DNA of 64,000 nt from an uncultured virus (IMG/VR IMGVR_UViG_3300025011_000035). Its lineage: Duplodnaviria > Heunggongvirae > Uroviricota > Caudoviricetes. A model generated the notes under the pieces. That model worked only from the letters and a program-made list of their open reading frames with translations. It had not been told where the DNA came from and did not search any database. Within the stretch, counting starts at the first letter, position 1; the number at the start of each line of letters is the position of its first letter. The position numbers and the translations under genes were made by a program. The stretch lies in the IMG/VR virus record IMGVR_UViG_3300025011_000035, one strand, 5' to 3'. Shown piece by piece: positions 3,494 through 60,675 of this stretch.

Positions 3494-4465
3494 TTAAATT
3501 ATTCTTAATTCAAGGCTCATAATATGATCATCATTAGAAAATGTATGAGTTGCTTTTTCAATAAGCATATATTGATTTAGTTTTACATCATCTAAATCTA
3601 AATTGTTTATAAAAATACTAAAACCTGCTCTGGCACGAATATCACCAAGAACAGGAATGCTTAATTTTTTATAAACTCTATTATACAAATTTAAAGATTG
3701 TGTTGCTCTTTCAGTAATTTGTGCTTCATTTAGATTATCATCAACAACTTCATAATATTGTAATGTACCCCATTTTTCTATATTACTACTATCTTTTACA
3801 ATGTAAACTTCAAGTTTTCCAGTTTCTTTATTGCTTTTTACAAGTTTTACTTGATTGGCTGTATCATCATCAATTGAGGTTGAATAATCAAAATTAGTTA
3901 GATTTGTTTCGCCATCAATAATTAAATCTGTTTTTAAATTCTCAACGTTTCTTAATTGAAGTTTTCCAAAATCATCATATAAAACATATAATTTTTTAGT
4001 TGACAATAATGTTAAATCATTAGCTTTATAAATCATATCTAATAATGTCTTATCTTGTTCAACCATAGAAGGGATCACATAGCCAGTATCTTCAATTGTT
4101 CCTATTGATAATTTCCAATCATTTGCTATTTTAGTTAATACTTCATTAGCTTTTTTATTTTCAAAGAATTCTGTTTCTTTGTTTTTTAAATATCTCATTT
4201 GGTCATATGCAACTACTTTAATTATTTTATCCTTATTTCTACCTCTTGAAAAAACATAACCATAAAATATATTGTTTTTATTATATTTGAATCTAACAAC
4301 TGAACCTTCATAAAATTTAACAATGCCATCATTTATTATTTTAAATTCTAATTTACTTGCTCCACCCATTCTCTCTGTATTCCAAGTGATTTGTCCTTCA
4401 GCCAAATTAGAAACATCATATACATTACCATTAGTATTATCCTGTATCAGTAATTCAATGCTCAT
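3494..4465 (-). CDS. xkdQ: XkdQ/YqbQ-like baseplate hub protein
   Basis: ITWNTERMGGASKLEF...AYDQMRYLKNK...NIEKWGTLQYYE; synteny. Confidence 0.85.
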   Translation of the reverse strand: MSIELLIQDNTNGNVYDVSNLAEGQITWNTERMGGASKLEFKIINDGIVKFYEGSVVRFKYNKNNIFYGYVFSRGRNKDKIIKVVAYDQMRYLKNKETEFFENKKANEVLTKIANDWKLSIGTIEDTGYVIPSMVEQDKTLLDMIYKANDLTLLSTKKLYVLYDDFGKLQLRNVENLKTDLIIDGETNLTNFDYSTSIDDDTANQVKLVKSNKETGKLEVYIVKDSSNIEKWGTLQYYEVVDDNLNEAQITERATQSLNLYNRVYKKLSIPVLGDIRARAGFSIFINNLDLDDVKLNQYMLIEKATHTFSNDDHIMSLELRII

Positions 4466-4478
4466 TTTATTTATCCTC

Positions 4479-5162
4479 TCATTCTAAATCAGGTAAAATT
4501 ATTTTTTGTCCAACATAAATAAGATTAGGATTAGAAATATTATTCAATTCTGCTAATTCTGTATATCTTGAACCATCATTAAGGAATTTTTTTGCAATTG
4601 CCCATAATGTATCACCAGATTTAACAATATATTCTTTAGGTGGGGTTCTTGTTGTTGGTCTTTCAGGCTGTATAGTTACAACCTGAGTTTGTATGCTTGA
4701 AATAGAAGATTTTTGAACTGTTAATTTTTTAGACCCATATTCTCTATATTCTTTTAAATTTATAGAATAATCCCATTGACCGAGTGTTCCTGCTGTTTCT
4801 GTTTCGGTAAAATCTTCAATTGTAACTAACATATTTGTTTTTACGTTATTGCCTTTTCTAGTTATAATAAATCTAACTGGTTTTTTACTTTCTCTGTATT
4901 CTCTAAATTTATCCAAATAAAACGAAGGATATTCAAATTTATTTTTTGTTACTACCCAAGGATAATCTGGACTTTCTGGAAGTATACTTTTAAAACTTAA
5001 ATCTCTTAAAGGAACATCTCTAATAACATTGATTTCACCAATATTTACTAACTCATATGTTTTATTACTACTTTTTGTTTTTATACTAAATTCAGGTGGG
5101 TTTACTGGAAGACGTATAGTAACACCTTCCATATCAAAAAATATTCCATAATCCTCAGTCAT
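4479..5162 (-). CDS. xkdP: XkdP-like LysM-domain tail protein
   Basis: RLPVNPPE N-terminus; C-terminal Lys[17 protein letters not shown]...[11 protein letters not shown]. Confidence 0.9.
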
Positions 5163-7630
5163 TAACTATACGCCCCCTCTGCTGACAAAGAAATTTGTTC
5201 AGCTAAAATTTCTTTAATTCTAGTTGCAATTCCATCTACATCTGCTGTTTCTCTTACATCTCCAAATGATACATTAATATTTGGTGCAAGCATTGATATT
5301 TTATTTATTGCATCTCTTTCAGCAACATCACGCAGTAATTTTATATCTTCAGCATTAATTTTTACGTCACCTTTAATACTTCCGATCTGTGAATTACCTT
5401 TACCATCGCCAAAAAGATTTTCTTGACTATTTAGTAAAGAATTCATTTTATCGCCAATCATGCCCGAAATATCTTGTAAACCATTTACAGCAAATTGTCC
5501 TGCTTTCACTCCAATTTCTTGCCCTTTGTCAAATGCAGTTCCATAGTCAACCTGATTAAATCTCATTAATTTAACTACGTCTTTTTCACTTTTAAGACTA
5601 TCTCTACCAGAATTTAATTTATCAAGAATACCTGTCATTCCACTAGTTATATTTGTACTCATTCCAGGTATCATATTGATTACATTTTCAATACCTTTTG
5701 CTATATTTGTCAAAAAGCTTAAAACATTTATAGACATATCATAGAATAATTTTTGAATAGCATACACGGGATCTATAAATACATTAGCAAAGAATTCTGC
5801 CACTGATAAAACAGTATTGGCAAATCCTGCAAACAAATTAAATAAAAATCCAAATAGTACACCAAATATTCCACCAACAATACCAATTACTTGTACTGTA
5901 GTATCTCCGAAATTTAGCATTGCATATAGTAATAGTCCTATGGCTGCTCCAATTAAGAGTATAGGCCAATTTAAAATTAACCATGCTGCTGCTTGTGCTA
6001 TGATAGGTTCAAGCATTAACCATAATTTAAGTGTAAGCATTGGTATTTGAGTCATTCCCCATAGGATAAAAGCTGCACTAATTGCATAAAGAATAGGTTG
6101 AATTGTTCCCCAATTATTTTGGAAAAACAAACCAATGGATATAATTGCATTTAATAATATATTAATACCTGCTATTAAAGCTGTGAGCGCATTTCCGATA
6201 TTATTAACAAGTTGAGATCCACCTTCAGAGTTTAATAAATTTGTAATTGTTTGCTGAATAGGAATTAAACTCATCATCATTTTATTTTTAATTAGATTTC
6301 CAATATCTCCAAATGTCATAGGTATTTTAGCAAACATTTTATTTGTTTCATCTGCTGTATTAAATAAAGCATTTTTAATAATCTGTGCTGTTATTTTTCC
6401 TTCTGATCCAAGCTTTTTCAATTCTCCTTGTGTTGCTCCCATTTCTTTTGCAATAGCCTGTGCAAGCATTGGGGCATTTTCATTGATTGATCTAAATTCA
6501 TCACCCTGAAGTTTACCTGCTGCCATGGCCTGATTTAATTGGTATGTGGCTGCTGTTTGTTCTTGGAGGGATGCACCAGATATTTTAAATTGCTTATTCA
6601 TTTGTTGTGCAAACAAAATAGATTCATCATTTGTTGGGAAAGCGTCTTTCGCCAACATATTAAGTTTAGCAACAGTAGCACTCATCAGGGAATATTCCCC
6701 TCTAGATTCTTGTGCTGCTTGATATATTTTTTGCTGTAATTCAGCTTGTGTCTGACTTCCATCGTTAATAAGATTTAACCTTGCTGCAATATTACTCATA
6801 TTGTCTAAAGTTTCAATACCTTGCTTTACAGCAAAAATACCGACTAAACCACCGATAACTCCTTTTAAACTAGAAAATATTCCACTAGACCTTTGTGCTT
6901 CATTATTCAATTGTCTTTGACTATTTACATTATTATTTATACCAGTATTTGTCTCATTAACAATCATAGTAGACCTTCGAGCTTCACTATTTAACTGTCT
7001 TTGACTATTTGTGGTATTATTTACACCATTATTCAATTGACTTTGACTAACAATATTATTGTTTATACTATTATTAGTTTGATTAATACTTTGGGTTGTT
7101 CTTTGAAATTCTCTACTTGCACTTGTAACTTCACTATTAAAACGTCTTTGATTATTAGTTGTGTCATTTATCCTATTACTTAACTGACTTTGATTGTTTG
7201 AAATATTGTTTATGCCACTATTAGTTTGATTAATGCTTTGTGCGGTTCTTTGAACTTCATTATTAAATTGCCTTTGATTGTTTGCAGAATTAACTAAACC
7301 TCCATTTGTTTGTCTAACATTTTGTGCCATCATTTGAACTTCTCTATTTGAATTTTGAACTTCGCTATTAAATTCTCTTTGTCTATTAGTATTATTATTT
7401 ATATCACCATTTGTTTGTCTAATACTTTGTGTCATATTTTGAATTGCTCTATTTGCGCTTGTGATTTCTCCTCTTGCTTGTGCAATGGTCTGGCTCATTT
7501 GCATATCCCTTGAAGTTGCTGAATTGAGTTGCTCCATAACATTCAAAGTCATATGCATAGCTCTAACAATACCCTGTAGAGGTCTTGAAATTTGATCATT
7601 AATTCTTAAAGTAGATGCATAAGTAGACAT
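5162..7630 (-). CDS. Tape measure protein (element A)
   Basis: Tape-measure domain [26 protein letters not shown]-rich N-terminal repeats (QRxFNxEV), hydrophobic central segment; position. Confidence 0.92.
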
Positions 7631-8236: not shown

Positions 8237-8398
8237 TTATTTATTCTTTTTTTCATCTTCTATTCTAAGATCAATACTTGCAATAGTTAATGCTCTTTCC
8301 CTATCATCCATTTCAGCAAAATCTTTAATTCTTATTTTTAATTTTTGAAGAGCAAAGTGAGCATACATAGCTTCTCCACCCTCCTTTATTAGTTTTTT
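8237..8398 (-). CDS. Tail assembly chaperone extension (T part) reached by -1 frameshift; not in ORF track
   Basis: Slippery A AAA AAC at 8398-8392 just before the stop. The -1 frame reads KKLIKEGGEAMYAHFALQKLKIRIKDFAEMDDRERALTIASIDLRIEDEKKNK (internal ATG at 8368). Confidence 0.75.
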   Translation of the reverse strand, partial: KKLIKEGGEAMYAHFALQKLKIRIKDFAEMDDRERALTIASIDLRIEDEKKNK

Positions 8399-8799
8399 GC
8401 TTCTTCTACTAACTCTTCCATTCCTGTATCAAATCCACACAAAACTAATATCTTTTCTGAAAGTCTTGCAATTTCGCCAGCTTTTAATTTTTTATTTAAA
8501 TAAAGTTCTGGACTTACACCACAACCTGCTTTCTTAATACTTTCCGCATCTTTGAAATTAGGATTTACTGTTCCTTTTATGACAATTTGTTCATTAAATT
8601 TTGCACTGTCAAAATCTGCACCTTTTTTAGATATTTTTGTACATTCTTTTTGAATGATTTTATATTCATCCATTGGAATATTTTTAATTGTGAACTTTAA
8701 AAGATTACCTTCTTTATCTTTAAATCTCTCTGATACTGTTACTTCTTCTATTAATTCATCAATTGAATTCTCATCTAAAAAATCTTGTAATGCTGACAT
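8389..8799 (-). CDS. xkdN: XkdN-like tail assembly chaperone
   Basis: VSERFKDKEG...VNPNFKDAE...AGEIARL...LVEEAKN; follows the tube gene. Confidence 0.85.
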   Translation of the reverse strand: MSALQDFLDENSIDELIEEVTVSERFKDKEGNLLKFTIKNIPMDEYKIIQKECTKISKKGADFDSAKFNEQIVIKGTVNPNFKDAESIKKAGCGVSPELYLNKKLKAGEIARLSEKILVLCGFDTGMEELVEEAKN

Positions 8800-19887: not shown

Positions 19888-20319
19888 TTATTCTTTACTA
19901 TCTTCATCCCATTTGTCTATACCTTCAAACAATTCTGCATTACTATCTTCAGTGTATTCCTTCTCAGTCACCTCTAGTTTGTTAGCAATCTTACCAATAT
20001 TCCTATTTAATATCTCTTTTGCTGTCTCCATGCGTACATTATCATTCTTAGAATCGCTTAGTAGCTCTGCTAATACGTCAATTGCTGTATCCTGAAGCTT
20101 TTCAAACCGTTTTGTAGCCGATCTTTTTAAAAATTCTGAAATATCCTGTTTACGTTTTTCCCATTCTGCAATAAATGCCTTCTGTTTTTTCCATCTCCAT
20201 ATTTGAGTTCTCTTATATCCAACTTCCTTCTCAATTTCATCGGTTTTATAACCATCTATAAGCATTTGGATACATTTTAACTGAGCAGGAGATAGACTAT
20301 CTTCTTCGCCTCTTATCAT
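19888..20319 (-). CDS. terS: Terminase small subunit, HTH type
   Basis: N-terminal HTH (EIEKEVGYKRTQIWRWKKQKAFIAE), VRMETAKEILNR; upstream of terL. Confidence 0.75.
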   Translation of the reverse strand: MIRGEEDSLSPAQLKCIQMLIDGYKTDEIEKEVGYKRTQIWRWKKQKAFIAEWEKRKQDISEFLKRSATKRFEKLQDTAIDVLAELLSDSKNDNVRMETAKEILNRNIGKIANKLEVTEKEYTEDSNAELFEGIDKWDEDSKE

Positions 20320-20378
20320 ATAATTTCACCCCATTTTCACTTTTGATATGCAACATAAAAAGGGTGAACAATCACCCT

Positions 20379-20684
20379 TTACTTCCTATCACTTTCATTC
20401 ATAAACATTAAGCACATCTTAAAATAATTATCATCTATTGTACTATCAATAATATTAATAATCTTAAATATTTCTTTATCATTATATTTTTCAGCTCTAA
20501 AATTCCTAATAATTCTAATTGTCTTTAAGAAGTTCGTTCTTTCTAATCCTCTTGACAGATACATATCTGATAAAAATTTATGATATTTTATATCTTCTTC
20601 ACAATCATTAAAATTATTAATCAATCCATAATATTTAATTAATATATTACTAATTGATTTTTGGAGAACTTCTTCTAAAAACAT
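20379..20684 (-). CDS. Hypothetical protein
   Basis: ORF with SD GGAG in operon orientation. Confidence 0.55.
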   Translation of the reverse strand: MFLEEVLQKSISNILIKYYGLINNFNDCEEDIKYHKFLSDMYLSRGLERTNFLKTIRIIRNFRAEKYNDKEIFKIINIIDSTIDDNYFKMCLMFMNESDRK

Positions 20685-20796
20685 TTAATACACACTCCAT
20701 TCGTTTTTTTACTTTAATTTATTTACAATAATACTCAATTGACCACTAATATTTAACAAAACAAATAATATACAACCAGCAATAAAATATAACATA

Positions 20797-21246
20797 TTAA
20801 ATTACTCCTTTTCCACTCAAAGCAATTTGTTCTGCAAGTAACTCTTTAATTCTATCAGCAATATTAACAACATCAAAATTTTCACTTACATTAATATTTG
20901 CAATAATGGTAGTAATTTTATTTAATATTTCTTTTTGTGCTATTTTTCTTAAAATTTTAATATCTTCATCATTTATTTTCACACCACCAACATTAATATT
21001 TACTGGCTTAACAATACCTTTTAAAAATTCTCTATCATCTTCTGATAAAACCAATTCATATTCTTCATCAATTAAATCTTCTTCATCTTTAATTACGTCA
21101 TCTACACATTCATTTAAAAAACATTTATCTTCATCAGTTAATTCTTTAAATTCCTTCAACGAAATACCAAAATATCTATTAAACAAAACAAACAATTTTA
21201 CATCAGCAACTTTTATAACCATCATCATTTTATCACTCACTTTCAT
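20797..21246 (-). CDS. Chimeric protein: tail-chaperone-T-like N-terminus plus tape-measure C-terminus-like domain
   Basis: C-terminal ~60 aa align with the C-terminus of the 5162..7630 TMP; the N-terminal part aligns more weakly with the 8237-8368 peptide. Confidence 0.7.
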   Translation of the reverse strand: MKVSDKMMMVIKVADVKLFVLFNRYFGISLKEFKELTDEDKCFLNECVDDVIKDEEDLIDEEYELVLSEDDREFLKGIVKPVNINVGGVKINDEDIKILRKIAQKEILNKITTIIANINVSENFDVVNIADRIKELLAEQIALSGKGVI

Positions 21247-22521: not shown

Positions 22522-23190
22522 TTATGATATAATACCTTCAAGTAATATATTTTCTTCAGAGGTTGAAATTGTTTCAGCAGTTTCAATCTCATTTTTTTGT
22601 TCTAATTTGAGTTCATATGTAAAAACATAATCTTCAGGAACAATTACATCTTTCCAACGCTTTTTTGTTTTAATTCTTGAAACGTACTCTGGATTACAAT
22701 CAAATATTTTACAAATTTCTTTATTCTTAATTCCTTTTTCTAATAGATATTTTATAGCAATTACAATATCTATATTTCCTTCTTGGTAATTTGGATTCTT
22801 TTCTCCACTAAATAATTCCCTAAATTGTTCTTTATGTCTTTTTGAATTTAAACCAGTTCTAAAAGTCTTTTTTAAGTTTTTAATATTATTAGTATTTTTA
22901 ATTGTATCCTTATATAAATCTTTCCAATAACTTTCTCTTTTTAATAAATCATGAACAGAACATTCTTCTAAAACAACTAATTTCCATGCACTTTCATCAT
23001 TTATTTCATTCCAAAATGCTTGCATTTTTTTAGTATGTTTTCCATGTCGCATTTTGCTCTTATGGTTGTGTTGTCTGCTATTTTTTATGTCGTGTGCATG
23101 ACCTACATATCGTATAATTCCATAAACTTCCCAACCATAAATACCTACAACTTTTACTTTTGCCATTTTAACATCATCCTCTTTCTTCAT
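22522..23190 (-). CDS. GIY-YIG-family endonuclease-like protein with a C-terminal HTH
   Basis: GIY...YVG...R..H...E motifs, SGEKNPNY NUMOD-like segment, EICKIFDCNPEYVSRIK HTH. Confidence 0.7.
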   Translation of the reverse strand: MKKEDDVKMAKVKVVGIYGWEVYGIIRYVGHAHDIKNSRQHNHKSKMRHGKHTKKMQAFWNEINDESAWKLVVLEECSVHDLLKRESYWKDLYKDTIKNTNNIKNLKKTFRTGLNSKRHKEQFRELFSGEKNPNYQEGNIDIVIAIKYLLEKGIKNKEICKIFDCNPEYVSRIKTKKRWKDVIVPEDYVFTYELKLEQKNEIETAETISTSEENILLEGIIS

Positions 23191-40867: not shown

Positions 40868-41848
40868 TTATTGAACCAAATATTGTTTATGTGATTGTTT
40901 TGTCTTTTCTTCTGTCATTCGAGCGTAAATCAAAGTTGTAGAAGGATCTTCATGCCCTAAAAGTTCTTGCACGGCCACTAATGAAGCTCCATTGTTGATA
41001 AGCAATGTGGCGAATGTGTGTCTCAATATGTGAGGATGTACATTTTTCTTAACTTCTGATCGTCCTGCTATAACCTTAATTTCTCTTTCAATTCCTCTAC
41101 ATGATAATCTTCCATTTGGTTTTCTTTCTGAAACGAATAAAGCAGGATCACTATCTAATCTTTGTAGTAAATATTTTTTTAAATGATATAGTGCTTTAAA
41201 ACTAAAATAAACATGTCTTTCTTTATTTCCTTTTCCAATTACAGTTGTAGACATAGCCTGAAGATCAATATCTTCCCTATTCATTTTTTGCACTTCTGAC
41301 AATCTACATCCTGTAGCATACAAAACTTCGATCAATGCTCTTTCTCTCGAACTTACGCAAGCTTCCCTAATCATTTCCAACTCATCAATTGTTAATGCTT
41401 TTGGTAATCGTTTCTCTTTTTTAGGTGTTTTTATTTTATAAGCATTGTCTTTATCAATTATCTCTTCGTTTCTCAACCAACTAAAAAAACTTTTAAGTAT
41501 TGAAATTTTCTTAGACATTGAACTAGTTTTAAGTTTATTGAATTTTCCTAAATACATCCTAATGTCATTTGTTGTAATATTTTCTACTAATTTATCTATG
41601 TGTTTACCAAATAACTTCAATTCAATTTCATATCCTGATAATGTGAGTTCGCTTAATCCTTCAAGTCTTTTTCCTGAAATAAAGATATTTATTTTTTGAT
41701 TAATATCTGACTCTCCATTTGTAAAATCATTTGGTTTTACAATATATGATTTTAGGATATCTTTAAACTTTTCCCTTATTATGGATTTGTCTACCTCTTC
41801 ACAAACTTCTCCAATACCATTTACCAACTCTTCTAATAAATCATCCAT
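40868..41848 (-). CDS. Tyrosine recombinase (XerD-like, with N-terminal SAM-like domain)
   Basis: TGCRLSE (R), GKGNKER (K), HPHILRH (HxxR), LGHE (H), TTLIYA (Y): catalytic set intact. Confidence 0.95.
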   Translation of the reverse strand: MDDLLEELVNGIGEVCEEVDKSIIREKFKDILKSYIVKPNDFTNGESDINQKINIFISGKRLEGLSELTLSGYEIELKLFGKHIDKLVENITTNDIRMYLGKFNKLKTSSMSKKISILKSFFSWLRNEEIIDKDNAYKIKTPKKEKRLPKALTIDELEMIREACVSSRERALIEVLYATGCRLSEVQKMNREDIDLQAMSTTVIGKGNKERHVYFSFKALYHLKKYLLQRLDSDPALFVSERKPNGRLSCRGIEREIKVIAGRSEVKKNVHPHILRHTFATLLINNGASLVAVQELLGHEDPSTTLIYARMTEEKTKQSHKQYLVQ

Positions 41849-47498: not shown

Positions 47499-50400
47499 CT
47501 ACCAAGGCTTAATCACTAAGTCAACTCTACTGATATAGCAAGTCCCTATAGTAGCTTTAACCGCCACATATATGTCCTGCCCTGGAAATATAACGAAGTC
47601 TATAACCGTTCTTTGCTTTATGAACTCTGTCGATTGAGTTGTCATATGTGGTAGAGATTGGTCATAAGGTTCCATGTAGACATATGGTAGACCGTTAGAA
47701 CCAAATATGTCGATCTCGCCCTTTCCACCACTTGAAACTTTCCAAGTTACTTCAAGGGCCATCCAACCCAATTCCGATTCAGCACTCATAGTGTGCAGAA
47801 GAGACGCTGTAGTAAGAGCTGAGAATAACGTCATAGTAGATTGACCCATGGTTAACGCTTTATACTCGTCAGACGCCGTCGATACATATGATTTATGGTC
47901 TGGATAATATAAAGCAGTGTAAACTTCTTTAACCACCGAACCGTCTTCTCCTGGAACTCCATCTGTTCCCTGGAATATTTTCCAAGAGTAATGAATATAG
48001 TTCGAACTCTGAGAAGAACTAAAGTCCGTATAGGTGCCGATGTATTTACCACTTGTATAGTTGAATCCAGTGCCAGAAGTGTCTTCGGCATACGCTATGT
48101 GTAGATACGTCGTCTGACCGTCATCACCTTTAATTAAGCTCCAAGCATAGTCGGATGGAGTCGAACTCTCAGTAATGACCAACTTATTAACCGCAATACC
48201 TACATATCTTTTTCCGGTAGGATTATCACTCATATTAGTACCAGCAGAATCGTCCGCATATTTAATCCAAGTATACCCACTTACTCCAGGTATTCCTTGA
48301 TCGCCGACGACTTTAACCCATGTATATTTTGTATAGTCGTCCGAATCATCTAATATGTTGTCTACGTACGTCCCCATGTATATACCAGAGGCCTCACCAT
48401 TATTGACTGTGAAAGGTGTTCCACTACTACTATCCGAATATTTAATGTGAAAGTACGAAGCTTTAGTGTCGGCATAGGTTTTTGATGCTGATACAATAAG
48501 TTGCCATAGTATCCCACGCTGGGCATAGTAAGTTATAAATTTTGTATCGAATTCGACCCTAGAAACAAGGGAGGTCGATGTGGTACTCAAAATTGGAAGC
48601 GTGTTACCAACCAGAACTGTGACATTTAAATAATCGTTTAAAGCGTTATACGCAGACGTATATGTACCAGCGTTTACGCCATATAGTCCAGCTTGGTTAA
48701 TCAGACTTTGATAATCCAAGACTATGGCGTCCCATATAGGTTTTAAGGTCTTTACTTTTTCGTTCTTAGTTATTTTATTATCGTCCGCCATCTCATCCAA
48801 ATCAAACATGGCTTCCTCGGCCGCTATTTGGGCATTTTCAGCAGCGAGTTGGGCTTTCGCCGCAAGTAGAGAACTACCCATAGCTATACCCTGAGGAACC
48901 CCATCCGTTATTTTTGTAAATATGTCGGCATACGAATCCGTTGTAGTACTACCATGAAGTACCTCCAAAGCACATCCTTGGAATAATCCAGGTATACCGA
49001 TAAATGCGTACGGATATTCACCAATCCCTGTATCTACTCCAGATCCGCCGCATCTCACAACTGCGTCTAACAATGTAGGATTCCATCCAATTGAATCGTT
49101 AGAAGTAAGCACTACGATAACAGTATCATCCCACGAATTCAGATTTGTGGCTAACGCGTTTCTTGTCGTGTCATCCAAAAATGTGTCGTACAATTGAGCA
49201 AAAACGACATCTAAAGTTTCCCGACTAAGAACCGTTAACATTAACCCTCTACCGGATATACTACAGGCTTCGATTTTCTTTTTGTTGAGCTTTAAATAAC
49301 GCTGTCCACTCTTCGCGCCAGTTCCTCTAATAGATAATTCTCCATCTATTGTAAATTCTGGGGTTTTGATGGTGATGGCGTTTTCCAAAGTCAATTTTGT
49401 ACTCATTACCAATGCAAATTTATCAAGCAAAGCCTTTTTATCTATTGTCTTCATTTTTTTAGGATAACTATCTAACGATAAATCGACCCACTTGTTTAAT
49501 TCCACTTGTAATCCTGTTGTACCCGTTAGTGAATCACGATATTTAGTCACCAGTTCAGGCGTAACCGCCATATCCTCAGCAATAGCAATTACATGATCAC
49601 TTTCCACGAGTATGTTATCAAAAGAGGCCTTAAGTGAAACTGATTCTGAATAATCAATAAACCCGTTTTTAGCGAACATTGTTATATCCGTTTGCATGCT
49701 TATTATGGCGATACCTAACTCGAAGGCTTGTTCGTCCGTATAAGTTAATAGGTTGTCAATTTTTATACGGGTCATAACATCATTCAAAGCGGTTTTGGTT
49801 GTTTCAACGCGTTTAAGTTTACTATTTAGGGTTTTACCCTTATATACAGAAATGGTGATAGGATAATTTGGTTGGCCTATCCAATCGTTCATCGCCGATA
49901 ACGCGTCTGTCATGGAACTTTTGAAAGTGCTTTCCGTCGTCGTTAGACTGGTTAAATCAGCACTAGGATCATCGAGTAATAATTTCAATCCATCAGCAAT
50001 CGTAATTATATCGTTCGACTCTGTTTCGACGGCTACGAATAACGTATTTAAAGTAACCGATTCTGGTTGCTGAATCTCTCCATTTTCAATATAGATATTG
50101 GCCTGAGTTTGAAACGCGCTTAACGCGGTATTTAACTCGGCTACTTGGTTCTCCACATATCTCTTTCCGTCATCTTGTCGATTTTTACTGATTGCATCAT
50201 TGAGTAGCGACTTGGTATTTTGGACGTTCTTGAACAGCGTACTAATCGCGACCATATCCCCTGCTAGGACCGGTATCGGATATTTAATCTGGTCAATCCA
50301 CTTGCTTCTCAATTCCGTGTCGAGAGCCGTCAACGCGCTTGAATAAGCCTCTTTTTCTGTGATAATTTCTAGAGTTCCAGCGATACGAATGATATCTTCC

Positions 50401-51641
50401 GACTCAGCTGTAAGTTGCTCCAAATCAAGTTTCAACGCTCTAGCCTCGGTTAATGTAATCCAGCCATCAGATGAGAATTTATCTACATCAGTAATCAATT
50501 CGGACAATTCGGTATCTAACTCCTGAATTTGAAGGTCCAGATAATTTGATGCTTTAATCAGATCCTGTTTTACAACTTGTATAACATCGGCTACGCTTTT
50601 GGCTATATTAGATTTAAAATTTCCTAATTCAATCTTTTCAATTCGATTCGTCAAGCAGTTCTTTACTGTTTTTATGACTTTTGCGTTGAGATTAATGTTC
50701 ATTCTTGAATGTTTTATGGTGACTAGATCTCCGAGTTCGACGGTTTCTAATATCGCATAATTCTTGTATTCCTCGGTCTTAGATAACTCAACCAAGTCTA
50801 TCTTGTAATTGAACGTTGGTATATCGATCTTAGAATCGATCAAAAAGTTGGTTGCTGCGAGTCTCAATTGTGCAATCGCCATCTCTTCAGTAATCAACAG
50901 ACTTTCGTCAACGCCAATGTCGCTAAAATCCAGAGTTTTAATAACTGGATTTGGATAGTTGTCAATATATGGACTGTCGACGTACTTCTCAGGTAGTAGC
51001 AGTTCATTATTACCAATTGGCATCAGGCGCGTACAAAGGCCCTCTGTGGTGAGTGTTTCTTCTATACCTTCTATATTCTTCCCATAAGCGATTAGGACGC
51101 CTCTATCAAGCCCTCTGGCCTCTAAGAGCTTAACTGAGTAGTTATCCATAACGAGTTCTCCACCCCATGTGGCTATAATCCCTTCAGAACCTAGAATTGC
51201 CTCAACCGGATTCATACGAGTAATCGTTTTAGTGTTGACTCCAGCAACATCGCTAGTGGCCTCAAAATTATGAGTATACTGAGTTGCGCCTAAGACTGAA
51301 GTAAGTGCTGATGCGCCGGACGCTTCGGTCAAAGTTAAACTTTCAATTAAATTTCCAAGTAGATCGTAGAAAATATGACGAGCATTAACTTTAACATCAG
51401 TCAACGTCTTTACTTTGCGATAAATCCTAAATAATTGACTATCAGCTTTTATGATGTTATCCTCTAATAGATATTTCCACTTACCTCGCGCATCTAATGG
51501 ATGGGTTAATTCAAGTTCGTACATACCATTTAAACCTTCGGTTAATGGTGCAGAAATAGTTTCAGACAATACAACCAAACCGTTATTATTAAAGTCTGCG
51601 CATTTACTACCATACACGTTAATCATTATTTCCACCGCCAA
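47499..51641 (-). CDS. Tal / prophage tail endopeptidase-type spike with helical repeats, an ILEI-like domain and HIxY(A/S)D repeats
   Basis: EGLNGMYELELTHP...YGKNIEG...TRLMPIG...VELGDLV N-terminus; later domains by motif. Confidence 0.85.
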   Translation of the reverse strand: MAVEIMINVYGSKCADFNNNGLVVLSETISAPLTEGLNGMYELELTHPLDARGKWKYLLEDNIIKADSQLFRIYRKVKTLTDVKVNARHIFYDLLGNLIESLTLTEASGASALTSVLGATQYTHNFEATSDVAGVNTKTITRMNPVEAILGSEGIIATWGGELVMDNYSVKLLEARGLDRGVLIAYGKNIEGIEETLTTEGLCTRLMPIGNNELLLPEKYVDSPYIDNYPNPVIKTLDFSDIGVDESLLITEEMAIAQLRLAATNFLIDSKIDIPTFNYKIDLVELSKTEEYKNYAILETVELGDLVTIKHSRMNINLNAKVIKTVKNCLTNRIEKIELGNFKSNIAKSVADVIQVVKQDLIKASNYLDLQIQELDTELSELITDVDKFSSDGWITLTEARALKLDLEQLTAESEDIIRIAGTLEIITEKEAYSSALTALDTELRSKWIDQIKYPIPVLAGDMVAISTLFKNVQNTKSLLNDAISKNRQDDGKRYVENQVAELNTALSAFQTQANIYIENGEIQQPESVTLNTLFVAVETESNDIITIADGLKLLLDDPSADLTSLTTTESTFKSSMTDALSAMNDWIGQPNYPITISVYKGKTLNSKLKRVETTKTALNDVMTRIKIDNLLTYTDEQAFELGIAIISMQTDITMFAKNGFIDYSESVSLKASFDNILVESDHVIAIAEDMAVTPELVTKYRDSLTGTTGLQVELNKWVDLSLDSYPKKMKTIDKKALLDKFALVMSTKLTLENAITIKTPEFTIDGELSIRGTGAKSGQRYLKLNKKKIEACSISGRGLMLTVLSRETLDVVFAQLYDTFLDDTTRNALATNLNSWDDTVIVVLTSNDSIGWNPTLLDAVVRCGGSGVDTGIGEYPYAFIGIPGLFQGCALEVLHGSTTTDSYADIFTKITDGVPQGIAMGSSLLAAKAQLAAENAQIAAEEAMFDLDEMADDNKITKNEKVKTLKPIWDAIVLDYQSLINQAGLYGVNAGTYTSAYNALNDYLNVTVLVGNTLPILSTTSTSLVSRVEFDTKFITYYAQRGILWQLIVSASKTYADTKASYFHIKYSDSSSGTPFTVNNGEASGIYMGTYVDNILDDSDDYTKYTWVKVVGDQGIPGVSGYTWIKYADDSAGTNMSDNPTGKRYVGIAVNKLVITESSTPSDYAWSLIKGDDGQTTYLHIAYAEDTSGTGFNYTSGKYIGTYTDFSSSQSSNYIHYSWKIFQGTDGVPGEDGSVVKEVYTALYYPDHKSYVSTASDEYKALTMGQSTMTLFSALTTASLLHTMSAESELGWMALEVTWKVSSGGKGEIDIFGSNGLPYVYMEPYDQSLPHMTTQSTEFIKQRTVIDFVIFPGQDIYVAVKATIGTCYISRVDLVIKPW

Positions 51642-52330
51642 TTAGGTATAATTTCAATTTTACTAACTGACCCAATCCAACTAATAGTATTTGTATCGAC
51701 AGTAAGTTTAGGAAAGTCTCCACTCATATCAGAATTTTTAAGAACATTATCCTTAAAACAATCCATTATATCACTGTCAATAGTTACATATTCTGAGACG
51801 TTCGTGAGAGTTATCAAAATGCCATTCACCATAAGATAAATAGTTCCGTCACCGTAAACTTTGATAACGGGATCACTCTCATGCGTCCCACGTCCATAGA
51901 TAGTTCCGTCACCATACATAGTCTCTTGAGGTATGAGAGTGATCTTTGAATTATCAAGCATTTTTGCAAACGGTTGACAATCAAAGACCACTACAAATTT
52001 ATACCATTGACGTATTATACGACTGAATGGTATTTGATTCATTATACTAGCTTGATATTTACGATCTGGTTGGTTTGAGAAAATAACTTCTCCAGATCTG
52101 TCTAACCAAGCTAGAACTCTATCCACCAATGCGATATCTAACAACGTACATTCGCAGGATTTGATCACGCTACCGTAAGTCCCAAAATCCTCGGTTAGGA
52201 AACCATTTCTGCCAGGTATAAATACCTTATTTATATCTCGATTAACCTTAATGATTGGGGGTAACTCGGTTACCAAGATCCCCATATCTTTACTAGAAAT
52301 GTCTTTGTATATAAAATACGGTTCGCCCAT
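51626..52330 (-). CDS. Distal tail protein (Dit)
   Basis: IPGRNGFL...FSNQPDRKY...FDCQPF...GDFPKL...PNWRW; follows TMP. Confidence 0.85.
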   Translation of the reverse strand: MGEPYFIYKDISSKDMGILVTELPPIIKVNRDINKVFIPGRNGFLTEDFGTYGSVIKSCECTLLDIALVDRVLAWLDRSGEVIFSNQPDRKYQASIMNQIPFSRIIRQWYKFVVVFDCQPFAKMLDNSKITLIPQETMYGDGTIYGRGTHESDPVIKVYGDGTIYLMVNGILITLTNVSEYVTIDSDIMDCFKDNVLKNSDMSGDFPKLTVDTNTISWIGSVSKIEIIPNWRWK

Positions 52331-55300
52331 TAGTTACCACCCCTTCCCATTATTATTTGTTGTCTGTAGAATTCTAACTCCTCAGCGAGGGCTTGAACGT
52401 CCTGTGTTCGGTTATTTATAAAATTAGTTACGGTTACGGCTAGACCGCCACCTTGATTTGAACTGGGTGTGCCATTTGGTGTCTGTTTAGCGATGGTGGA
52501 ACTTAGACCAACCCTTCGATTCGCGTCCATACTGGAAATAGACGCGGTCTTACTTCTAATATCATCCACATTGATGGCTTGTGATCTGTTAAAGACTGAG
52601 TTTAGACCTTTATTGATATTTGTAAGGTCTATTACCGGACGAATTGTTGGCGTAATATCCATATTTCTACTAACGATGTCGACAATATTAGATACAGCGC
52701 TTCTTAAAGATTCCTTTGCGGTTACGGCAACATTTGAAACTTCGTTAACGACAACTCCAGTGAATTGTCTTAATCCACCAGCGAAACCTTCCATAGCGTA
52801 TCGTCCGACTTTAGCGAATTCTTTTGATGGAGATTGTATACCGAGTGTATCATTGGCCGCATTTAATGCTTGTTTAGCTGCATCTGCGGTGGCCTTAGCC
52901 AATAATACAGCCTGACGTTTAACTCCTTGTGTTATACCGTCTATAATGTTTACACCAACGCTTACCCAATCGGGTTGTTTAAATATGTTTTGCGTATCAG
53001 TAACGATCTTTTTGAAGTCGTTGTTGGTTTGGGTATTCAAATCTTTGACTTTTGTCTCCCATTTTGAATTGAACTCGGTTAGTTGTGTTTCGGTATTAGT
53101 CGTTATGGCGGCAAGTTGAGTCTGGTATACGTCTTTAAGCTCAACCAATTGAGTATCGGTTTGAGTATTCAACTGTGTGATTTTCTTGTCGGACTGTTCT
53201 CTCATATCACCAAGTTCTCTTACGGCTTCACCTTTTGATTGCTTATGCTTGTCTTTCCATAAAGCCACGTACTTATCCAATTCAGGTTTTAGTAACGAGT
53301 TTAGGGCTTTGACTTTTTCAAGCGCGGTTGGACCCATCTCCTCGAGTTCTTTAATTAAGCCGTCACTAATACCCTTCTTGGATAATGACTTTATGTTTTT
53401 CTGCCATTCGTCAAAAGCCGCGACTTGCGTTTCTAAGTTTGTAACTAGTTCTTCGCCAGTTACAGCTTCTGATTCGCTAAGTTCGTCGAATAGTCCGTAC
53501 GTCTTATACAAGGAATCGGCACGAGATTTAACGGCCTGTCTATACTCATCATTTACAGAGCGTGTGTCTTGTTTTAGCTTTTCATTAATACCTTTCGTTT
53601 TAGCGTAGTAATCATCTTCCAATGTTTTTTGCTTTTCGAGTATTTCCTTTTTAAGACGATATACCTCTCGATCGACTTTCTCTCGTTCCTCTGTTCCAGC
53701 AGCATATTTACTTTGTATGTTTTGCCAAGCAGAGAGTTCTTCCATCAAACTAAGTTGATTGTAATATTTCCGATCGTCAATTAACTTGATCGATTTGTCA
53801 AATTCTTCTTTACTTATTTGTTGTCTCGTCTTGGATGCTTCGCGATTAGTTTTATCACTCTTAGTGATCTCTTTGTTACTCGCATCCGAAACTTTCGTAG
53901 CCATAGTCTTTGATTCTTCGACCGCTTTTGGCGTGTCTTGTTTTATTCCGTTTTTTAAACCAGCAACAATGTTCGCTCCATAATCTTGGAACACTTTACT
54001 TGGTGAGGCGATACCTAAGGCGTTTGCCGCCGATTCGTTTACCGCCTTTCCTAAATCACCAGCCGTCCTACTGGCTTCCGATTGGGTGCTCTTTAATCCG
54101 TCAATTAATTGTTCACCAGAACGTAGTCCCATCTCAGTAAATACTTTTGACGGAGACTTTATACCTAAGAATCTTTCAGCGCTGTCTACGGCTTCGCCAA
54201 CTATTCCGGTTATAGCTTTAGATAGTGATCCAGCCATATTAACAACGCCTTTGACTAGACCTTTAACAATGTTACCGCCAACGTCTATGATTTTAGGAAG
54301 TAAATCAATAACCGCGTCAACAATGGCAGTTATAAGATTACCGACCGCATCATATAATTGTTGATGGTTATTTCTAATGGCGTCGGCTAATCCGTTGATA
54401 AATGCAATAATGACTTTGAATGCTGCGTCTACGATGGCTGGGAGTTTGGACACTACTCCTGCAATGAACTGTAAGATTACGTCAATACCGGCCTCTACTA
54501 CGTCCCTAATGCGTTCAGTTACGCCCTTAAGGATTCCCAATATCAGTTTCATTCCAGAATCAATCATTTTTGGAACTGCTGCTACGAGTGTATCTAGTAT
54601 TGATAATGTAAGAGTTGCAATTGTGGTTATGATTTGTGGGCCAACTTCCACAATTATTTGATGCATAGCCATCATTACGTCTTGCATAGCTTTTGCTATT
54701 GTAGGTGCGCCTTCACCAATAATCCTAGCAAAATCGATAATGCCTTTGGCTAGCGTTTGAAATATGAATGGTATTAGACCAACGATGCTGCTAACCACTG
54801 CGACTAATGCGACGGCTCCGGCGGTGCCAGATACGGCTAAGGCCGCGAGTCCAGCTGAGAAAGCTAATAATCCAACACCTACCGCCAAACAGCCAACCCC
54901 TAATATTGCTATGGCTCCGGCCAGTGATAATATTGCGGGAGTTAGTGGTGCTAAAAGTAAACCGGCTAATCCGATAACTCCAAATGCGCCAGCCAAAGCA
55001 AGTAGACTTGTTCCGATCGCGGGCAATGACATGGAACCAAGAGTCTGTAATACTTGCGCTAAAATTAGAAGCGCCCCAACAAGGATAAACAAGGCCGTTG
55101 CATCAAGTATTTTATTTTTCATTAGAGCAAAAGTAGCTATGATGATTCCTAGAGATCCGGCCATAGCTAATAAACCTTTTAATATTTCTTCCCATGACAT
55201 TTTACCAAGCGTGGATAAAGCTTTCGCTAATATGGTTATCGTTGTGGCAATATCGAGCATGGCTAATGATTGGAATAATATATTCTTCGGTAACGCTTTA

Positions 55301-58110
55301 AATGTTAAAACTATGATCCCTAAAGCCCCAGCTAACGTTGTTAACCCTCTTGCGATTTCGTCCCATGACAGTTTTCCCATATTGCCAATCGCTTTTGCGA
55401 ATATAATCATAGCTGCGCCAAGAATGGTTAACGATAACGCTGTGGAAATTACATTTTTAACGTTACCCGTGAGATTTACAAATATGCCAACTTCGGCCAA
55501 CACAACGCCGACACCAAGCAGTCCTTTGATCAGAGCTACAGTATCTATTTCGCTGAACTTTTTGACGGCAACACCTAACACGTTTATAGCTATAGCCAGA
55601 ACCACAATACCAACACTTTTGATCACGCCCATGCCACTTAGATCCGCGACTTTCATAAATAACGCTAGTTCAGCCATCAATACACCAACGCCGATTAGAC
55701 CATTGGTTAACCCAGCTTTATCGACAGTGCTTAAACTCTTTACCGATGAAACAAGAACTCGTATTGCTGTGCCGAAAATGATAAAGCCAATTGATGCTCT
55801 TATTAGACTTCCAGATATACCACTTAGAACTTTTGATGACACTAACAATATACCGGTTAAAGCCGCAACAGCAGTGAGGCCTTGTTGCATGCCTTCTTTG
55901 TCTATTTTGGATAAGACGGTCATTGCGTGAGCGAGAATAAGAATTGCTACAGATAAACCAAGCATCGCGGTCGTAATTCTAGCCATTACCATGAACCCTA
56001 AACCGCCAGAGACCTTCTCGAATAAAGCCATTGCTCCAAAAAGTTGTAGAAACATCGTGGTCATAGCAGCTAGTGAGGATGCAAGTTTATTAGAATCGAT
56101 CGAGGCTATAGCTACAAGTGCCACCGCTAATATACCAATGGCAATGGCTATTTTCAATAGGATCGCGGCTTTTAATGACGATTGATATGCTTCGAGACTA
56201 CCTCTAACATCACCGAGAATTCCGGTGATGTTTCCGAGGAAATCTCCTGTGTCATCAGCTATCGATGTTATCGATTTCACGAATCTACGTAATCCCAGTA
56301 AGATGGCTGCGAATACACCACCGTTTATCATATTGGCTATCGAATTGAAGTCTGAGTTATCAATGGCGCTGGCGATACCACTACCTAGTTTCGAGAACGC
56401 CCCGCCGATAATGTCTGCTATTTTATAGAATGTTGGAGCTACAGCTTTTAGTCCGGCCAATATACCAGCGAATACAGCATCTACCATTTCCCCAAGCTTT
56501 TCAAATGGTTTAAATTTGGTAGTAACATGATCGGAGAAAGAATCAAGACCGGTTGTGTCAACATCACCAAGCGATGTAAATGCCTTAGTTATAGTATTTA
56601 TCGCGGATTTAATTCCGTCAGCAATAGGTTTAATAAGATCTCCTATTTTTTGAATAACCACATTAAACGAATCCGAAGATTTTATTGCCTTATCAATCGA
56701 CGTTAGAAACTCTCCGATACTACCTGTCACGGCAAGAAAGCCGCCACCTACCGGAATCAAATACTGAATAACTGAACTAAGGCCGCCAGCGATCGCGAAC
56801 AACGCCTGCTTACCAATATCGAGTATAGCAAACAAACCCTTAAAAGTACTCTTTATGTTAGCGGCTGTTTCTTCTCCTATTTTGAAGTTCCTCGACAAAT
56901 CTCTTATTGATTCGGAAATCTTAACGAGTCTTTCACCAGTCATCGGCGGAAAAATGTCACTGAAGGCTTGACCTATTGGATCTAAAACCTCTTTAATTCC
57001 TTTGAAGGAGTTGAATAGCGCCTCTATGATAGCGTATCGTCCGTCGTTAGCCTTCCAGAAAATAAGCATCTCGTTTCTAGCCTCGGCAGATGCTCCAGCG
57101 ATAGCTCCAAACCCGTCATTGATCGCCGTAAAGAAACCAGCAGCTTCTTCTCTGTCACCTATGACGTGCTCCCATGTTTGAGCCCATCCAGATTGTACGG
57201 ACTCTTTCATTGTGCTAAGTAGTTGAGTTAAAGTTTTAACTTGTGTGGCCGCTTTAATTAAAGACTCGTCCGCAGCAAACTTAGCAAGTGTCTTGGTTAA
57301 TACTTCGGTCGTCATCCAACCAGATTCCAACGACTCTCTGAATGATATAGCCATGTTTCGACCATGACCAAGTTCCTTTGCGGTCTTCTCCAAAGCTTTC
57401 TGGAAAAGTTCTCCGCCCATACCAGCATTAACTACAGAGTTCCAGTCCATAAGTTTAACTGCGCCGGACGCTATAGCCTGGGAGAGCTGATACATAGCTG
57501 TGGATGCTTGTAATGCGCTTGATCCGGAACCAGCAGCAAGGTTAGCTATGCCTTTGATCGAGGTCGTTGATGTTTTAAGGTCGACGCCAGCAGCTGTAAA
57601 TGTTCCTATATTTCTTGTCATTTCAGCAAAATTGTAAATGGTTTTATCGGCATATATATTCAACTCGTTGAGTGCTTTGTTTACGTCATCAAGGGTTGTG
57701 CCTTTACTTGCGGTGTTAGTTAAGACCGTTGTGATGGCGTTCATTTTAGTTTCGTATTCTTCTAAACCAGTCTTTATCGGGTTGATAGTAAGTGACGCTA
57801 ATAATTGTTTACCACTATAGATGGCTGAATTAGTAATGTTTTGGAGAGCAGTAACCCCGACAATGCCCAGCGTCGAGAACCTATTGGATAAATTATTAAC
57901 GCCTTCAGCTATACCAGCTAGAGAAAACGATTTTCCAGCTCTATCTAAATTCGATAAACTTCTAGTTGCGCCATCTAGATTTAGACCGGCCTTCAAGTTA
58001 TTAAGCGATGCCACACTCGAACGAATCCCATTTTCAAACTGTTGATTATAGAGTCGTAATTCAACAACTCGTTCATCGACACTATGCATTATCCAATTAC
58101 CTCCTCCCAC
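52330..58110 (-). CDS. Tape measure protein (element B)
   Basis: ELNIYADKTIYNF...YQLSQAIASG tape-measure domain, long hydrophobic repeats, three GIxSPSKxF motifs; start probably at MHSVDERV. Confidence 0.92.
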   Translation of the reverse strand: MGGGNWIMHSVDERVVELRLYNQQFENGIRSSVASLNNLKAGLNLDGATRSLSNLDRAGKSFSLAGIAEGVNNLSNRFSTLGIVGVTALQNITNSAIYSGKQLLASLTINPIKTGLEEYETKMNAITTVLTNTASKGTTLDDVNKALNELNIYADKTIYNFAEMTRNIGTFTAAGVDLKTSTTSIKGIANLAAGSGSSALQASTAMYQLSQAIASGAVKLMDWNSVVNAGMGGELFQKALEKTAKELGHGRNMAISFRESLESGWMTTEVLTKTLAKFAADESLIKAATQVKTLTQLLSTMKESVQSGWAQTWEHVIGDREEAAGFFTAINDGFGAIAGASAEARNEMLIFWKANDGRYAIIEALFNSFKGIKEVLDPIGQAFSDIFPPMTGERLVKISESIRDLSRNFKIGEETAANIKSTFKGLFAILDIGKQALFAIAGGLSSVIQYLIPVGGGFLAVTGSIGEFLTSIDKAIKSSDSFNVVIQKIGDLIKPIADGIKSAINTITKAFTSLGDVDTTGLDSFSDHVTTKFKPFEKLGEMVDAVFAGILAGLKAVAPTFYKIADIIGGAFSKLGSGIASAIDNSDFNSIANMINGGVFAAILLGLRRFVKSITSIADDTGDFLGNITGILGDVRGSLEAYQSSLKAAILLKIAIAIGILAVALVAIASIDSNKLASSLAAMTTMFLQLFGAMALFEKVSGGLGFMVMARITTAMLGLSVAILILAHAMTVLSKIDKEGMQQGLTAVAALTGILLVSSKVLSGISGSLIRASIGFIIFGTAIRVLVSSVKSLSTVDKAGLTNGLIGVGVLMAELALFMKVADLSGMGVIKSVGIVVLAIAINVLGVAVKKFSEIDTVALIKGLLGVGVVLAEVGIFVNLTGNVKNVISTALSLTILGAAMIIFAKAIGNMGKLSWDEIARGLTTLAGALGIIVLTFKALPKNILFQSLAMLDIATTITILAKALSTLGKMSWEEILKGLLAMAGSLGIIIATFALMKNKILDATALFILVGALLILAQVLQTLGSMSLPAIGTSLLALAGAFGVIGLAGLLLAPLTPAILSLAGAIAILGVGCLAVGVGLLAFSAGLAALAVSGTAGAVALVAVVSSIVGLIPFIFQTLAKGIIDFARIIGEGAPTIAKAMQDVMMAMHQIIVEVGPQIITTIATLTLSILDTLVAAVPKMIDSGMKLILGILKGVTERIRDVVEAGIDVILQFIAGVVSKLPAIVDAAFKVIIAFINGLADAIRNNHQQLYDAVGNLITAIVDAVIDLLPKIIDVGGNIVKGLVKGVVNMAGSLSKAITGIVGEAVDSAERFLGIKSPSKVFTEMGLRSGEQLIDGLKSTQSEASRTAGDLGKAVNESAANALGIASPSKVFQDYGANIVAGLKNGIKQDTPKAVEESKTMATKVSDASNKEITKSDKTNREASKTRQQISKEEFDKSIKLIDDRKYYNQLSLMEELSAWQNIQSKYAAGTEEREKVDREVYRLKKEILEKQKTLEDDYYAKTKGINEKLKQDTRSVNDEYRQAVKSRADSLYKTYGLFDELSESEAVTGEELVTNLETQVAAFDEWQKNIKSLSKKGISDGLIKELEEMGPTALEKVKALNSLLKPELDKYVALWKDKHKQSKGEAVRELGDMREQSDKKITQLNTQTDTQLVELKDVYQTQLAAITTNTETQLTEFNSKWETKVKDLNTQTNNDFKKIVTDTQNIFKQPDWVSVGVNIIDGITQGVKRQAVLLAKATADAAKQALNAANDTLGIQSPSKEFAKVGRYAMEGFAGGLRQFTGVVVNEVSNVAVTAKESLRSAVSNIVDIVSRNMDITPTIRPVIDLTNINKGLNSVFNRSQAINVDDIRSKTASISSMDANRRVGLSSTIAKQTPNGTPSSNQGGGLAVTVTNFINNRTQDVQALAEELEFYRQQIIMGRGGN

Positions 58111-60018: not shown

Positions 60019-60675
60019 TTAACCAGCGGCGAACATGGTCGCAATTTCGTCAGGTAGAGGTAATTCTGCTGGGGTTGCAGTGTCTCCAAATAACAATTTC
60101 TCGAGTGCGACAAGTTTTACAGCATCTACTTTCGTTGAGTCAATTGTTAAGGACGCTGTCGGTCTCTTTCCAGTGACAGCGACCGGCGTGGTGGTAATTT
60201 CCCACGAGAAGGTTATTGCTTCTGGAGAATCATTGATCGTTGAATATGCCTTTTCTGTAGGGGCAGCAAGACAACCATAAATCAGATGTAATTTATAACC
60301 ATGATCGGCCCCTTCGGTGTCATTTCCAAGCGTGGTCTTATATGCTAAACCGAAAGTTTTGCGATCTTGCTGGCCGATTGAAACCCCGACAGCTAAATCA
60401 GCAGAACCATCGCACTCAGCGAATTCATCGGGATATGTGTACGCTTCGATCGTTGCACCGAACTCCTCAGCGGATAAGAGATTTAAATATTTGATATCGT
60501 CGGCGTAAATCGGTGTTGGTTCCGCACCAGATGGACTTTCGGTTACGGCGGTTAAACCATTCCAAGCAACGCCTAAAGGATATGCGCCAGTATTGTCCAT
60601 AACATAGAGAACTCCATTTTTTACACCGGTTTCATATAGACGTTCTCCAGAAGCATCCCAAATAAGTTTAGCCAT
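60019..60675 (-). CDS. Major tail protein (siphovirus)
   Basis: AWNGLTAVTESPSG...IYADDIKY...HLIYG...FSWEITTTP; terminator-like hairpin at about 59971-59998. Confidence 0.85.
   Translation of the reverse strand: MAKLIWDASGERLYETGVKNGVLYVMDNTGAYPLGVAWNGLTAVTESPSGAEPTPIYADDIKYLNLLSAEEFGATIEAYTYPDEFAECDGSADLAVGVSIGQQDRKTFGLAYKTTLGNDTEGADHGYKLHLIYGCLAAPTEKAYSTINDSPEAITFSWEITTTPVAVTGKRPTASLTIDSTKVDAVKLVALEKLLFGDTATPAELPLPDEIATMFAAG

Follow-up and report, generated by a model that had tools for sequence, protein, structure and literature searches.

Why should a prophage carry, away from its tail genes and just upstream of its small terminase subunit gene, a small gene whose product ends like the tape measure protein (TMP) of that same prophage? 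We addressed this question in a 64,000-nucleotide stretch of DNA from an uncultured virus (IMG/VR record IMGVR_UViG_3300025011_000035; Caudoviricetes), which as a whole is referred to here as the window. A preliminary description had taken the gene, hereafter the mini gene, for a free-standing imitation of the tape measure in which a segment resembling the chaperone T domain is fused to a TMP C-terminus, and had proposed that its product is a decoy in tail assembly or, alternatively, a deletion relic.

The mini gene and the prophage around it

The first ~38 kb of the window are a low-GC (25–33%) prophage whose late genes lie on the minus strand. Its gene set includes terS, terL, portal and head genes, a sheath (PF04984 and related) and a tube (PF09393), and further tail genes encode an XkdN-like chaperone, the TMP, LysM/Dit-like, YQBQ-like and DUF2577 proteins, a sheath initiator and Baseplate_J (Table 1). 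Positions 38000–64000 hold a second prophage-like region, of 38–44% GC, which abuts the first, so that two unlike phages adjoin. This second region carries an integrase (40868..41848) and a siphophage tail module with a 1380-aa Tal-like protein (47499..51641), Dit (51626..52330), a 1926-aa TMP (52330..58110) and a major tail protein (60019..60675), then a protease/capsid-like gene and a portal. Comparison of the 1926-aa siphophage TMP with the mini protein revealed no likeness (best E 0.072).

Table 1 Coordinates of the features discussed, numbered from the first letter of the window
Feature	Position	Strand	Basis or remark
Mini gene	20797..21246	minus	149 codons as listed; protein acidic, pI 4.6
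N-terminal part, family-specific, residues 9–86	20989..21222	minus	helix prediction, alignment
TMP-like tail, residues 87–149	20800..20988	minus	homologous to last 66 residues of window TMP
~30-codon segment, counterpart of penultimate TMP helix	20896..20985 (approximate)	minus	alignment
12-nt direct repeat AAATATTAATGT, first copy	20990..21001	minus	read from sequence
12-nt direct repeat AAATATTAATGT, second copy	20888..20899	minus	read from sequence
28-codon hydrophobic ORF	20709..20795	minus	kept in L003
Terminator-like hairpin, between early-operon end and terS	20359..20380	minus	pattern match only
terS, small terminase subunit, first gene of late module	19888..20319	minus	family matches
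XkdN-like tail assembly chaperone	8389..8799	minus	PF08890
Chaperone −1 frame 'T' extension	8240..8428	minus	heptamer A-AAA-AAC at 8392..8398
Tape measure protein (TMP), XkdO-type, 822 aa	5162..7630	minus	PF20155 TMP_3, phrog_1068
TMP C-terminal 69 residues, segment copied in mini gene	5165..5371	minus	BLASTP, alignment
LysM/Dit-like 'tube tail' protein	4479..5162	minus	family match
YQBQ-like hub protein	3494..4465	minus	family match
DUF2577 protein, 117 aa	3136..3489	minus	gene order: occupies the place of the diffocin spike

The mini gene ORF is real. It forms the 3' end of a run of small early genes just upstream of terS, other members of which are a homing-endonuclease-like gene, a DUF1064 resolvase-like gene, a 113-aa ORF and a P-loop-like 151-aa ORF. 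Its location agrees with the preliminary description: terS is downstream, and the XkdN-like chaperone gene is ~12.4 kb away. The mini gene is ~13.2 kb away from the TMP gene (13.6 kb from start to start), and its position and its size of 149 codons are unlike those of the true TMP gene. After it come, in order, the 28-codon ORF, a 101-codon ORF, the terminator-like hairpin and terS. The 28-codon ORF is strongly hydrophobic (gravy 1.55), has its ATG one base past the TAA of the mini gene and may encode a translationally coupled membrane peptide. Further upstream in the early run, the homing-endonuclease-like ORF (22522–23190, minus) sits beside the DUF1064 gene (PADLOC HEase 4.1e-9; phrog_59 HNH).

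Translation probably starts at Met7–Met9, giving a protein of 141–143 aa, because relatives begin there and a GTGAG-type ribosome-binding site precedes it. With a start and a ribosome-binding site of its own, the mini gene is an independent ORF, not a −1 frameshift product. Its product is small, soluble and acidic, without membrane helices and without a TMP_3 domain, which a Pfam search did not match. The N-terminal part has three predicted helices, a conserved Cys-x4-Cys, an acidic linker (pI 4.05) and V-N-I-N-V at its end, and by itself makes up an 83-aa protein, P0008. The AAATATTAATGT repeat encodes the N-I-N-V motif, and its two copies flank the ~30-codon segment, which is present in the long form of the gene (window, L001 and P0003) and absent in the short forms (P0005–7 and L003). 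An AlphaFold2 model of the mini protein made from a 6-row alignment reached a mean pLDDT of 41, too low to be of use.

The two parts of the mini protein

Two independent comparisons show that the last ~62 residues of the mini protein are truly homologous to the end of the prophage's own TMP, and the C-terminal half of the preliminary description is upheld. BLASTP aligns mini residues 87–147 with TMP residues 754–819 at 37 of 66 identical positions (56%), with one 5-residue gap and an E of 9e-18, and residues 88–148, the only part of the mini protein to do so, match the 706-position phrog_1068 TMP profile, at positions 638–704 (E 1.2e-6); the DNA of the two 3' ends is ~65% identical. The conserved C-terminal segment, by analogy the docking segment, is present with its terminal motif changed: S-A-[EK]-G-x-Y is found in 7/7 complete TMP ends, a count that leaves out H1, whose match stops before the end, and S-[GV]-K-G-[VA]-I takes its place in the mini family. 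The T-L-T-P and G-D-V turns are altered in the tails of the family and the helices are retained. We also considered residues 57–86 as a diverged duplicate of the penultimate TMP helix and rejected the idea, as BLASTP returned no alignment and identity in the alignment was 10–21%.

The TMP end is a conserved module, judging by its recurrence in other phages. A tblastn search with the last 79 TMP residues hit 22 phage records, Brevibacillus, Clostridium tetani, Geobacillus and Psychrobacillus phages among them, at one place each (20 annotated TMP 3' ends and 2 unannotated), and therefore a second free-standing copy occurs in 0/22 of the phages with this TMP end. Annotation of L013 (OP209178.1 9994–13815) divides the TMP into two CDS and leaves the conserved TMP end unannotated in a third stretch, suggesting a TMP gene that is split or frameshifted, or else errors in the sequencing.

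Analogy with better characterized tails suggests that what the mini gene has copied is the ruler's docking module. Diffocin, the closest solved machine that has the gene order of the window, has its genes ordered TMP, tube tail, hub-hydrolase and spike. Inside its hub, the last 23 residues (795–817) of the TMP, CD1366, are reported to intertwine as a bundle with the N-terminal helices of the trimeric spike (CD1369), TMP ends building trimeric helix bundles (PMC11329794). The TMP end of phiCD508 likewise is reported to touch the needle tip (PMC11948020), and a three-helix bundle of the P2 TMP to lie toward the spike (bioRxiv 10.64898/2026.09.14.750843). In TP901-1, deletion of the last 30 TMP residues gives heads without tails, ~60 C-terminal residues being required by this account (PMC5099701). 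The statement in the preliminary description that the TMP C-terminus docks in the baseplate fits what is reported for diffocin and TP901-1. We draw the analogy because the window shares the diffocin gene order (TMP, LysM/Dit-like, YQBQ-like, DUF2577) with matching families; a search of solved chains gave no sequence match for the TMP end, spike or hub, and the link to diffocin is one of gene order and Pfam families only. Compared with solved structures, the whole TMP matched other TMPs in the central domain only. By position the DUF2577 protein is the presumed docking partner of the TMP end; its AlphaFold2 model, from the single sequence, has a pLDDT of 33, likewise too low to be of use.

The N-terminal part falls into no family of Pfam, PHROGs, NCBIfam or PADLOC, and in the ESM Atlas it has no feature match and structural rows at TM ≤ 0.5 only; a solved-structure sequence search with the mini protein returned nothing meaningful. 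The preliminary description had called this part chaperone-T-like. The T peptide to which it was compared is real: its −1 frame overlaps the end of the XkdN-like gene, it matches phrog_33439 at 1.6e-10, and 45 phage records conserve it behind their XkdN-like genes. The A-AAA-AAC sequence, a slippery heptamer of the textbook −1 type, immediately precedes the XkdN-like stop codon, and S-K-K-L-I, invariant in the T peptides of nine phages, is encoded across it. A 145-codon ORF (7715–8152, minus) separates the chaperone/T frame from the TMP gene, an unusual site for an extra gene; it has only a weak phrog_26783 match (6.1e-5) and nothing in Pfam, NCBIfam or PADLOC.

The mini N-terminus and the T domain (of the lambda gpGT type; in this phage, the −1 frame product of XkdN) are both short, helical and acidic, and BLASTP and hhalign place them in one register over 30–56 residues. 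The 9/33 identities claimed for them were found as counted, a level reached by 197 of 2000 shuffles, and the best ungapped 33-mer BLOSUM62 score of 43 was reached by 1 of 2000. Compared as a single pair, the mini protein and the T peptide align by BLASTP at 14/56 identities (E 5e-4), and hhalign of a 3-row N-domain alignment against a 9-row T alignment recovers the BLASTP register over 30 columns (probability 7.4%, P 0.0047), which for one pre-chosen pair corresponds to a P of ~0.005. With the whole window as the search space, 836 six-frame segments, the signal fades to an E of ~1: the T profile finds the mini ORF at E 0.86 as its second-best non-self match, and the N-domain profile finds the T segment at E 1.8 as its fifth-best; both rank high and neither is significant. 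phrog_33439 did not match P0001 at E ≤ 0.01, nor P0007 or P0008 at E ≤ 1, and no N-domain member matched the PHROG families of the T peptide. The mini protein has neither S-K-K-L-I nor E-R-A...A-S-I, both conserved in the nine T peptides. We treat the T-likeness of the N-domain as unproven and think it unlikely to be real.

Relatives, free tape measure ends and selection

The mini family is very rare. A word-indexed search with the mini protein yielded 5 proteins among 48 candidates, and an exhaustive HMMER scan of 1.84 billion representatives returned 4 matches at E ≤ 0.001: a short form (P0005); the tail-less 83-aa P0008, which is the N-domain alone; a 703-aa TMP matched through its end (P0010); and a valine/proline-rich repeat protein (P0009), which we judged spurious and rejected as a family member. 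The mini protein had no match in 50,697 phage records or in species genomes, and the nearest virus record (G001) is without the mini gene. L001, a viral contig, does not differ from the window. A further candidate relative, L004, proved to be an unrelated high-GC locus matched via a short acidic motif.

The short forms P0005–7, of 111–113 aa, are without the ~30 codons for the penultimate TMP-like helix and retain the last ~37 TMP-like residues, which are 62% identical to the window TMP (E 4e-10). Because the long form is without five residues found in both the TMP and the short forms, neither form simply derives from the other. As the preliminary description had it, the gene is diverged yet open: the ORF is intact in five sequence clusters at 60–98% identity, the 90-nt and 6-nt indels both keep frame, and relatives retain the stop together with the overlapping start codon of the small ORF that follows. 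The tails of the short forms differ from each other at only 1–2 of 32 positions. In L003, a 44.7-kb metagenome contig, a short form lies directly between a DUF1064-like gene and terS, and the small hydrophobic ORF is kept.

Free TMP ends are not confined to this family. Short proteins were searched for with the TMP end as query, which gave 2 among 21 candidates, a 43-aa fragment identical to the TMP end and P0012, an 82-aa protein unrelated to the mini family which has a 12-residue leader, then the TMP end from residue 13, and no N-domain; P0012 is 72% identical to the window TMP over 46 residues. The TMP end has therefore been set free in at least two architectures. A scan of viral sequences returned solely the window phage's own TMP end (L002). 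When the last part of the free-standing ends was compared across 7 TMPs, all three free-standing types were closest to the window TMP (62–70% identity), as against 43–55% to P0010 and at most 41% to the five other phage TMPs and H1.

Selection was estimated as dN/dS by the Nei-Gojobori method between the window and L003. The whole mini gene has a dN/dS of 0.44, compared with 0.28 for terS, 0.11 for terL and 0.10 for portal. Divided into its parts, the N-domain gives 0.30 (7 synonymous and 10 non-synonymous changes) and the TMP-like tail 0.73 (5 synonymous and 14 non-synonymous changes in 33 codons). Taken as one unit, the gene is under constraint, with moderate selection on the N-domain, and the value for the 33-codon tail is not distinguishable from neutral. 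The preliminary description had looked to orthologues and dN/dS for support: orthologues exist but are few, and constraint is found on the N-domain, the tail value being compatible with constraint as well as with neutrality.

Possible roles and comparison with known systems

Our preferred reading, held tentatively and as possible rather than probable, is that the mini protein mimics the docking end of the TMP and acts on the tail initiator. It would be an accessory protein, small, soluble and acidic, of a temperate Xkd/PBSX-type myophage, in which a helical N-terminal part private to the family is followed by a diverged copy of the TMP docking end from its own phage lineage, a fusion most likely made by recombination at or near the short N-I-N-V-coding repeat. 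The tail would form TMP-like terminal helices that may occupy, or compete for, the socket of the TMP C-terminus on the putative spike (DUF2577) inside the YQBQ-like hub, the spike-hub complex being the presumed initiator from which the tube grows. The mini protein could thereby block or time tail initiation, perhaps of related co-resident or incoming phages or tailocins, perhaps of the phage's own tails before the late genes are on. We infer binding, an effect on tails and, from the diffocin and TP901-1 analogies, docking on the spike.

Several lines of evidence argue for such mimicry. The homology of the tail is strong and concerns specifically the extreme end of the TMP, and the last ~37 residues, common to all tailed members, contain the counterpart of the diffocin bundle; the equivalent region in TP901-1 is reported to be essential for tail formation (PMC5099701). 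Of the TMPs compared, that of the window is the nearest to each of the three free-standing types, P0012 shows that the TMP end was freed at least twice, the ORF is intact in five clusters with its indels in frame, and the gene occupies the typical Tai site upstream of the packaging module. The case is weakened by the tail dN/dS of 0.73, by the loss of TMP motifs and by P0008, which has the N-domain without the tail. It is weakened further because the gene, in contrast to phi80 tai, runs in the direction of the lytic genes, because diffocin is linked by gene order and Pfam families, and because none of the 22 sequenced phages with this TMP end carries a second copy. A broader claim, that stand-alone TMP ends are a recurrent and so far undescribed accessory class which mimics the docking end to jam or time tail initiation or rides as cargo, seems to us somewhat doubtful.

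The better conservation of the N-domain than of the tail (dN/dS 0.30 vs 0.73) would be expected if the TMP end had been captured merely as a ready-made trimer-forming coiled coil, with the function residing in the acidic N-terminal part (host takeover or anti-defence, for example) and unrelated to tails. We regard both the borrowed helix and the tail-independent function as rather doubtful. TMP ends are reported to form trimeric helix bundles (PMC11329794), the N-domain stands without the tail in P0008, the TMP-specific turns and terminal motifs are lost and the helices kept, and the protein is acidic (pI 4.6; linker pI 4.05) and encoded among early accessory genes, all of which would suit an oligomerization helix. 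Such a helix leaves unexplained, however, why the three free-standing types stay closest to their own TMP and why P0012 is almost entirely TMP end, and the N-domain received no function assignment from Pfam, PHROGs, NCBIfam, PADLOC, the ESM Atlas or solved structures.

Alternatively, a small early ORF may have run into a copied TMP 3' end, leaving a tail that is translated, roleless and decaying. Such a mosaic relic would account for the rarity of the family (4 matches in 1.84 billion, one spurious, and none in the 50,697 phage records or species genomes), for the tail dN/dS of 0.73 and the loss of TMP-invariant motifs, for the length polymorphism between the 12-nt direct repeats and for the tail-less relative P0008. 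We nevertheless think it unlikely, since frames are open in five clusters at 60–98% identity with both indels in frame, neither the stop nor the overlapping start of the small ORF after it has been lost, the short-form tails differ at only 1–2 of 32 positions, and P0012 is a second independent free-standing end. The deletion relic offered as an alternative in the preliminary description loses ground to the intact ORFs, the in-frame indels and the N-domain dN/dS of 0.30, and the tail value is still compatible with it. Least probable, and in both its parts quite improbable, is a tail-loaded cargo, in which the TMP-like end would be an address tag docking the mini protein at the spike in the tube lumen for ejection into the host ahead of the DNA, like TMP-related CIS effectors: the protein is small, soluble and acidic, a TMP-homologous CIS effector that binds baseplate proteins (Tme) is known (PMC11126660) and the copied segment is the spike-contacting one in diffocin, but the three spike helices of diffocin are already paired with three TMP ends by the same account (PMC11329794) and the mini gene lies outside the late operon.

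If the mimicking end does dock on the spike or hub, a prophage would be controlling or sabotaging tail assembly by mimicry, a mechanism that differs from those of the described Tai and Tab inhibitors. A minimal peptide of ~37–62 residues would then define the TMP-spike interface of PBSX/diffocin-type machines and would be useful for tailocin engineering and cargo loading. Were it no more than a recombination scar, the gene would be an ordinary case of phage mosaicism. A narrow literature search, which leaves absence unproven, found no paper on a free-standing TMP-end mimic.

Among known systems, the docking ends of TMPs are the source of the likeness, and the mini protein differs from them in being free-standing, 141–149 aa long and encoded in the early region. 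Prophage genes that block tail assembly, Tai and Tab, are reported to lie mostly upstream of the packaging module (PMC11364771); the mini gene is likewise a prophage accessory gene in the Tai hotspot, two small ORFs upstream of terS, and its proposed effect would also be interference at the tail-tip or initiator stage. PADLOC-DB 2.0.0 (2023) and the other libraries searched, which possibly do not include Tai models, gave no relation to a Tai family or to defence, and an anti-Tai partner was not recognized here. The phi80 tai gene is divergently transcribed and made in the lysogen according to the same source, whereas the mini gene is co-oriented with the lytic genes, and Tai proteins are not, in the part of that source on which we draw, described as copies of a tail protein (PMC11364771). 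The other precedent is Tme of the Streptomyces davawensis CIS, an effector and remote TMP homologue that binds baseplate proteins (PMC11126660). Tme is the largest ORF of its cluster, occupies the TMP position and carries a nuclease, whereas the mini protein is tiny, without an enzyme domain and encoded elsewhere; like the mini protein, it is a non-ruler protein with TMP-derived sequence, and its reported contacts are with the spike and tube-initiator proteins (PMC11126660).
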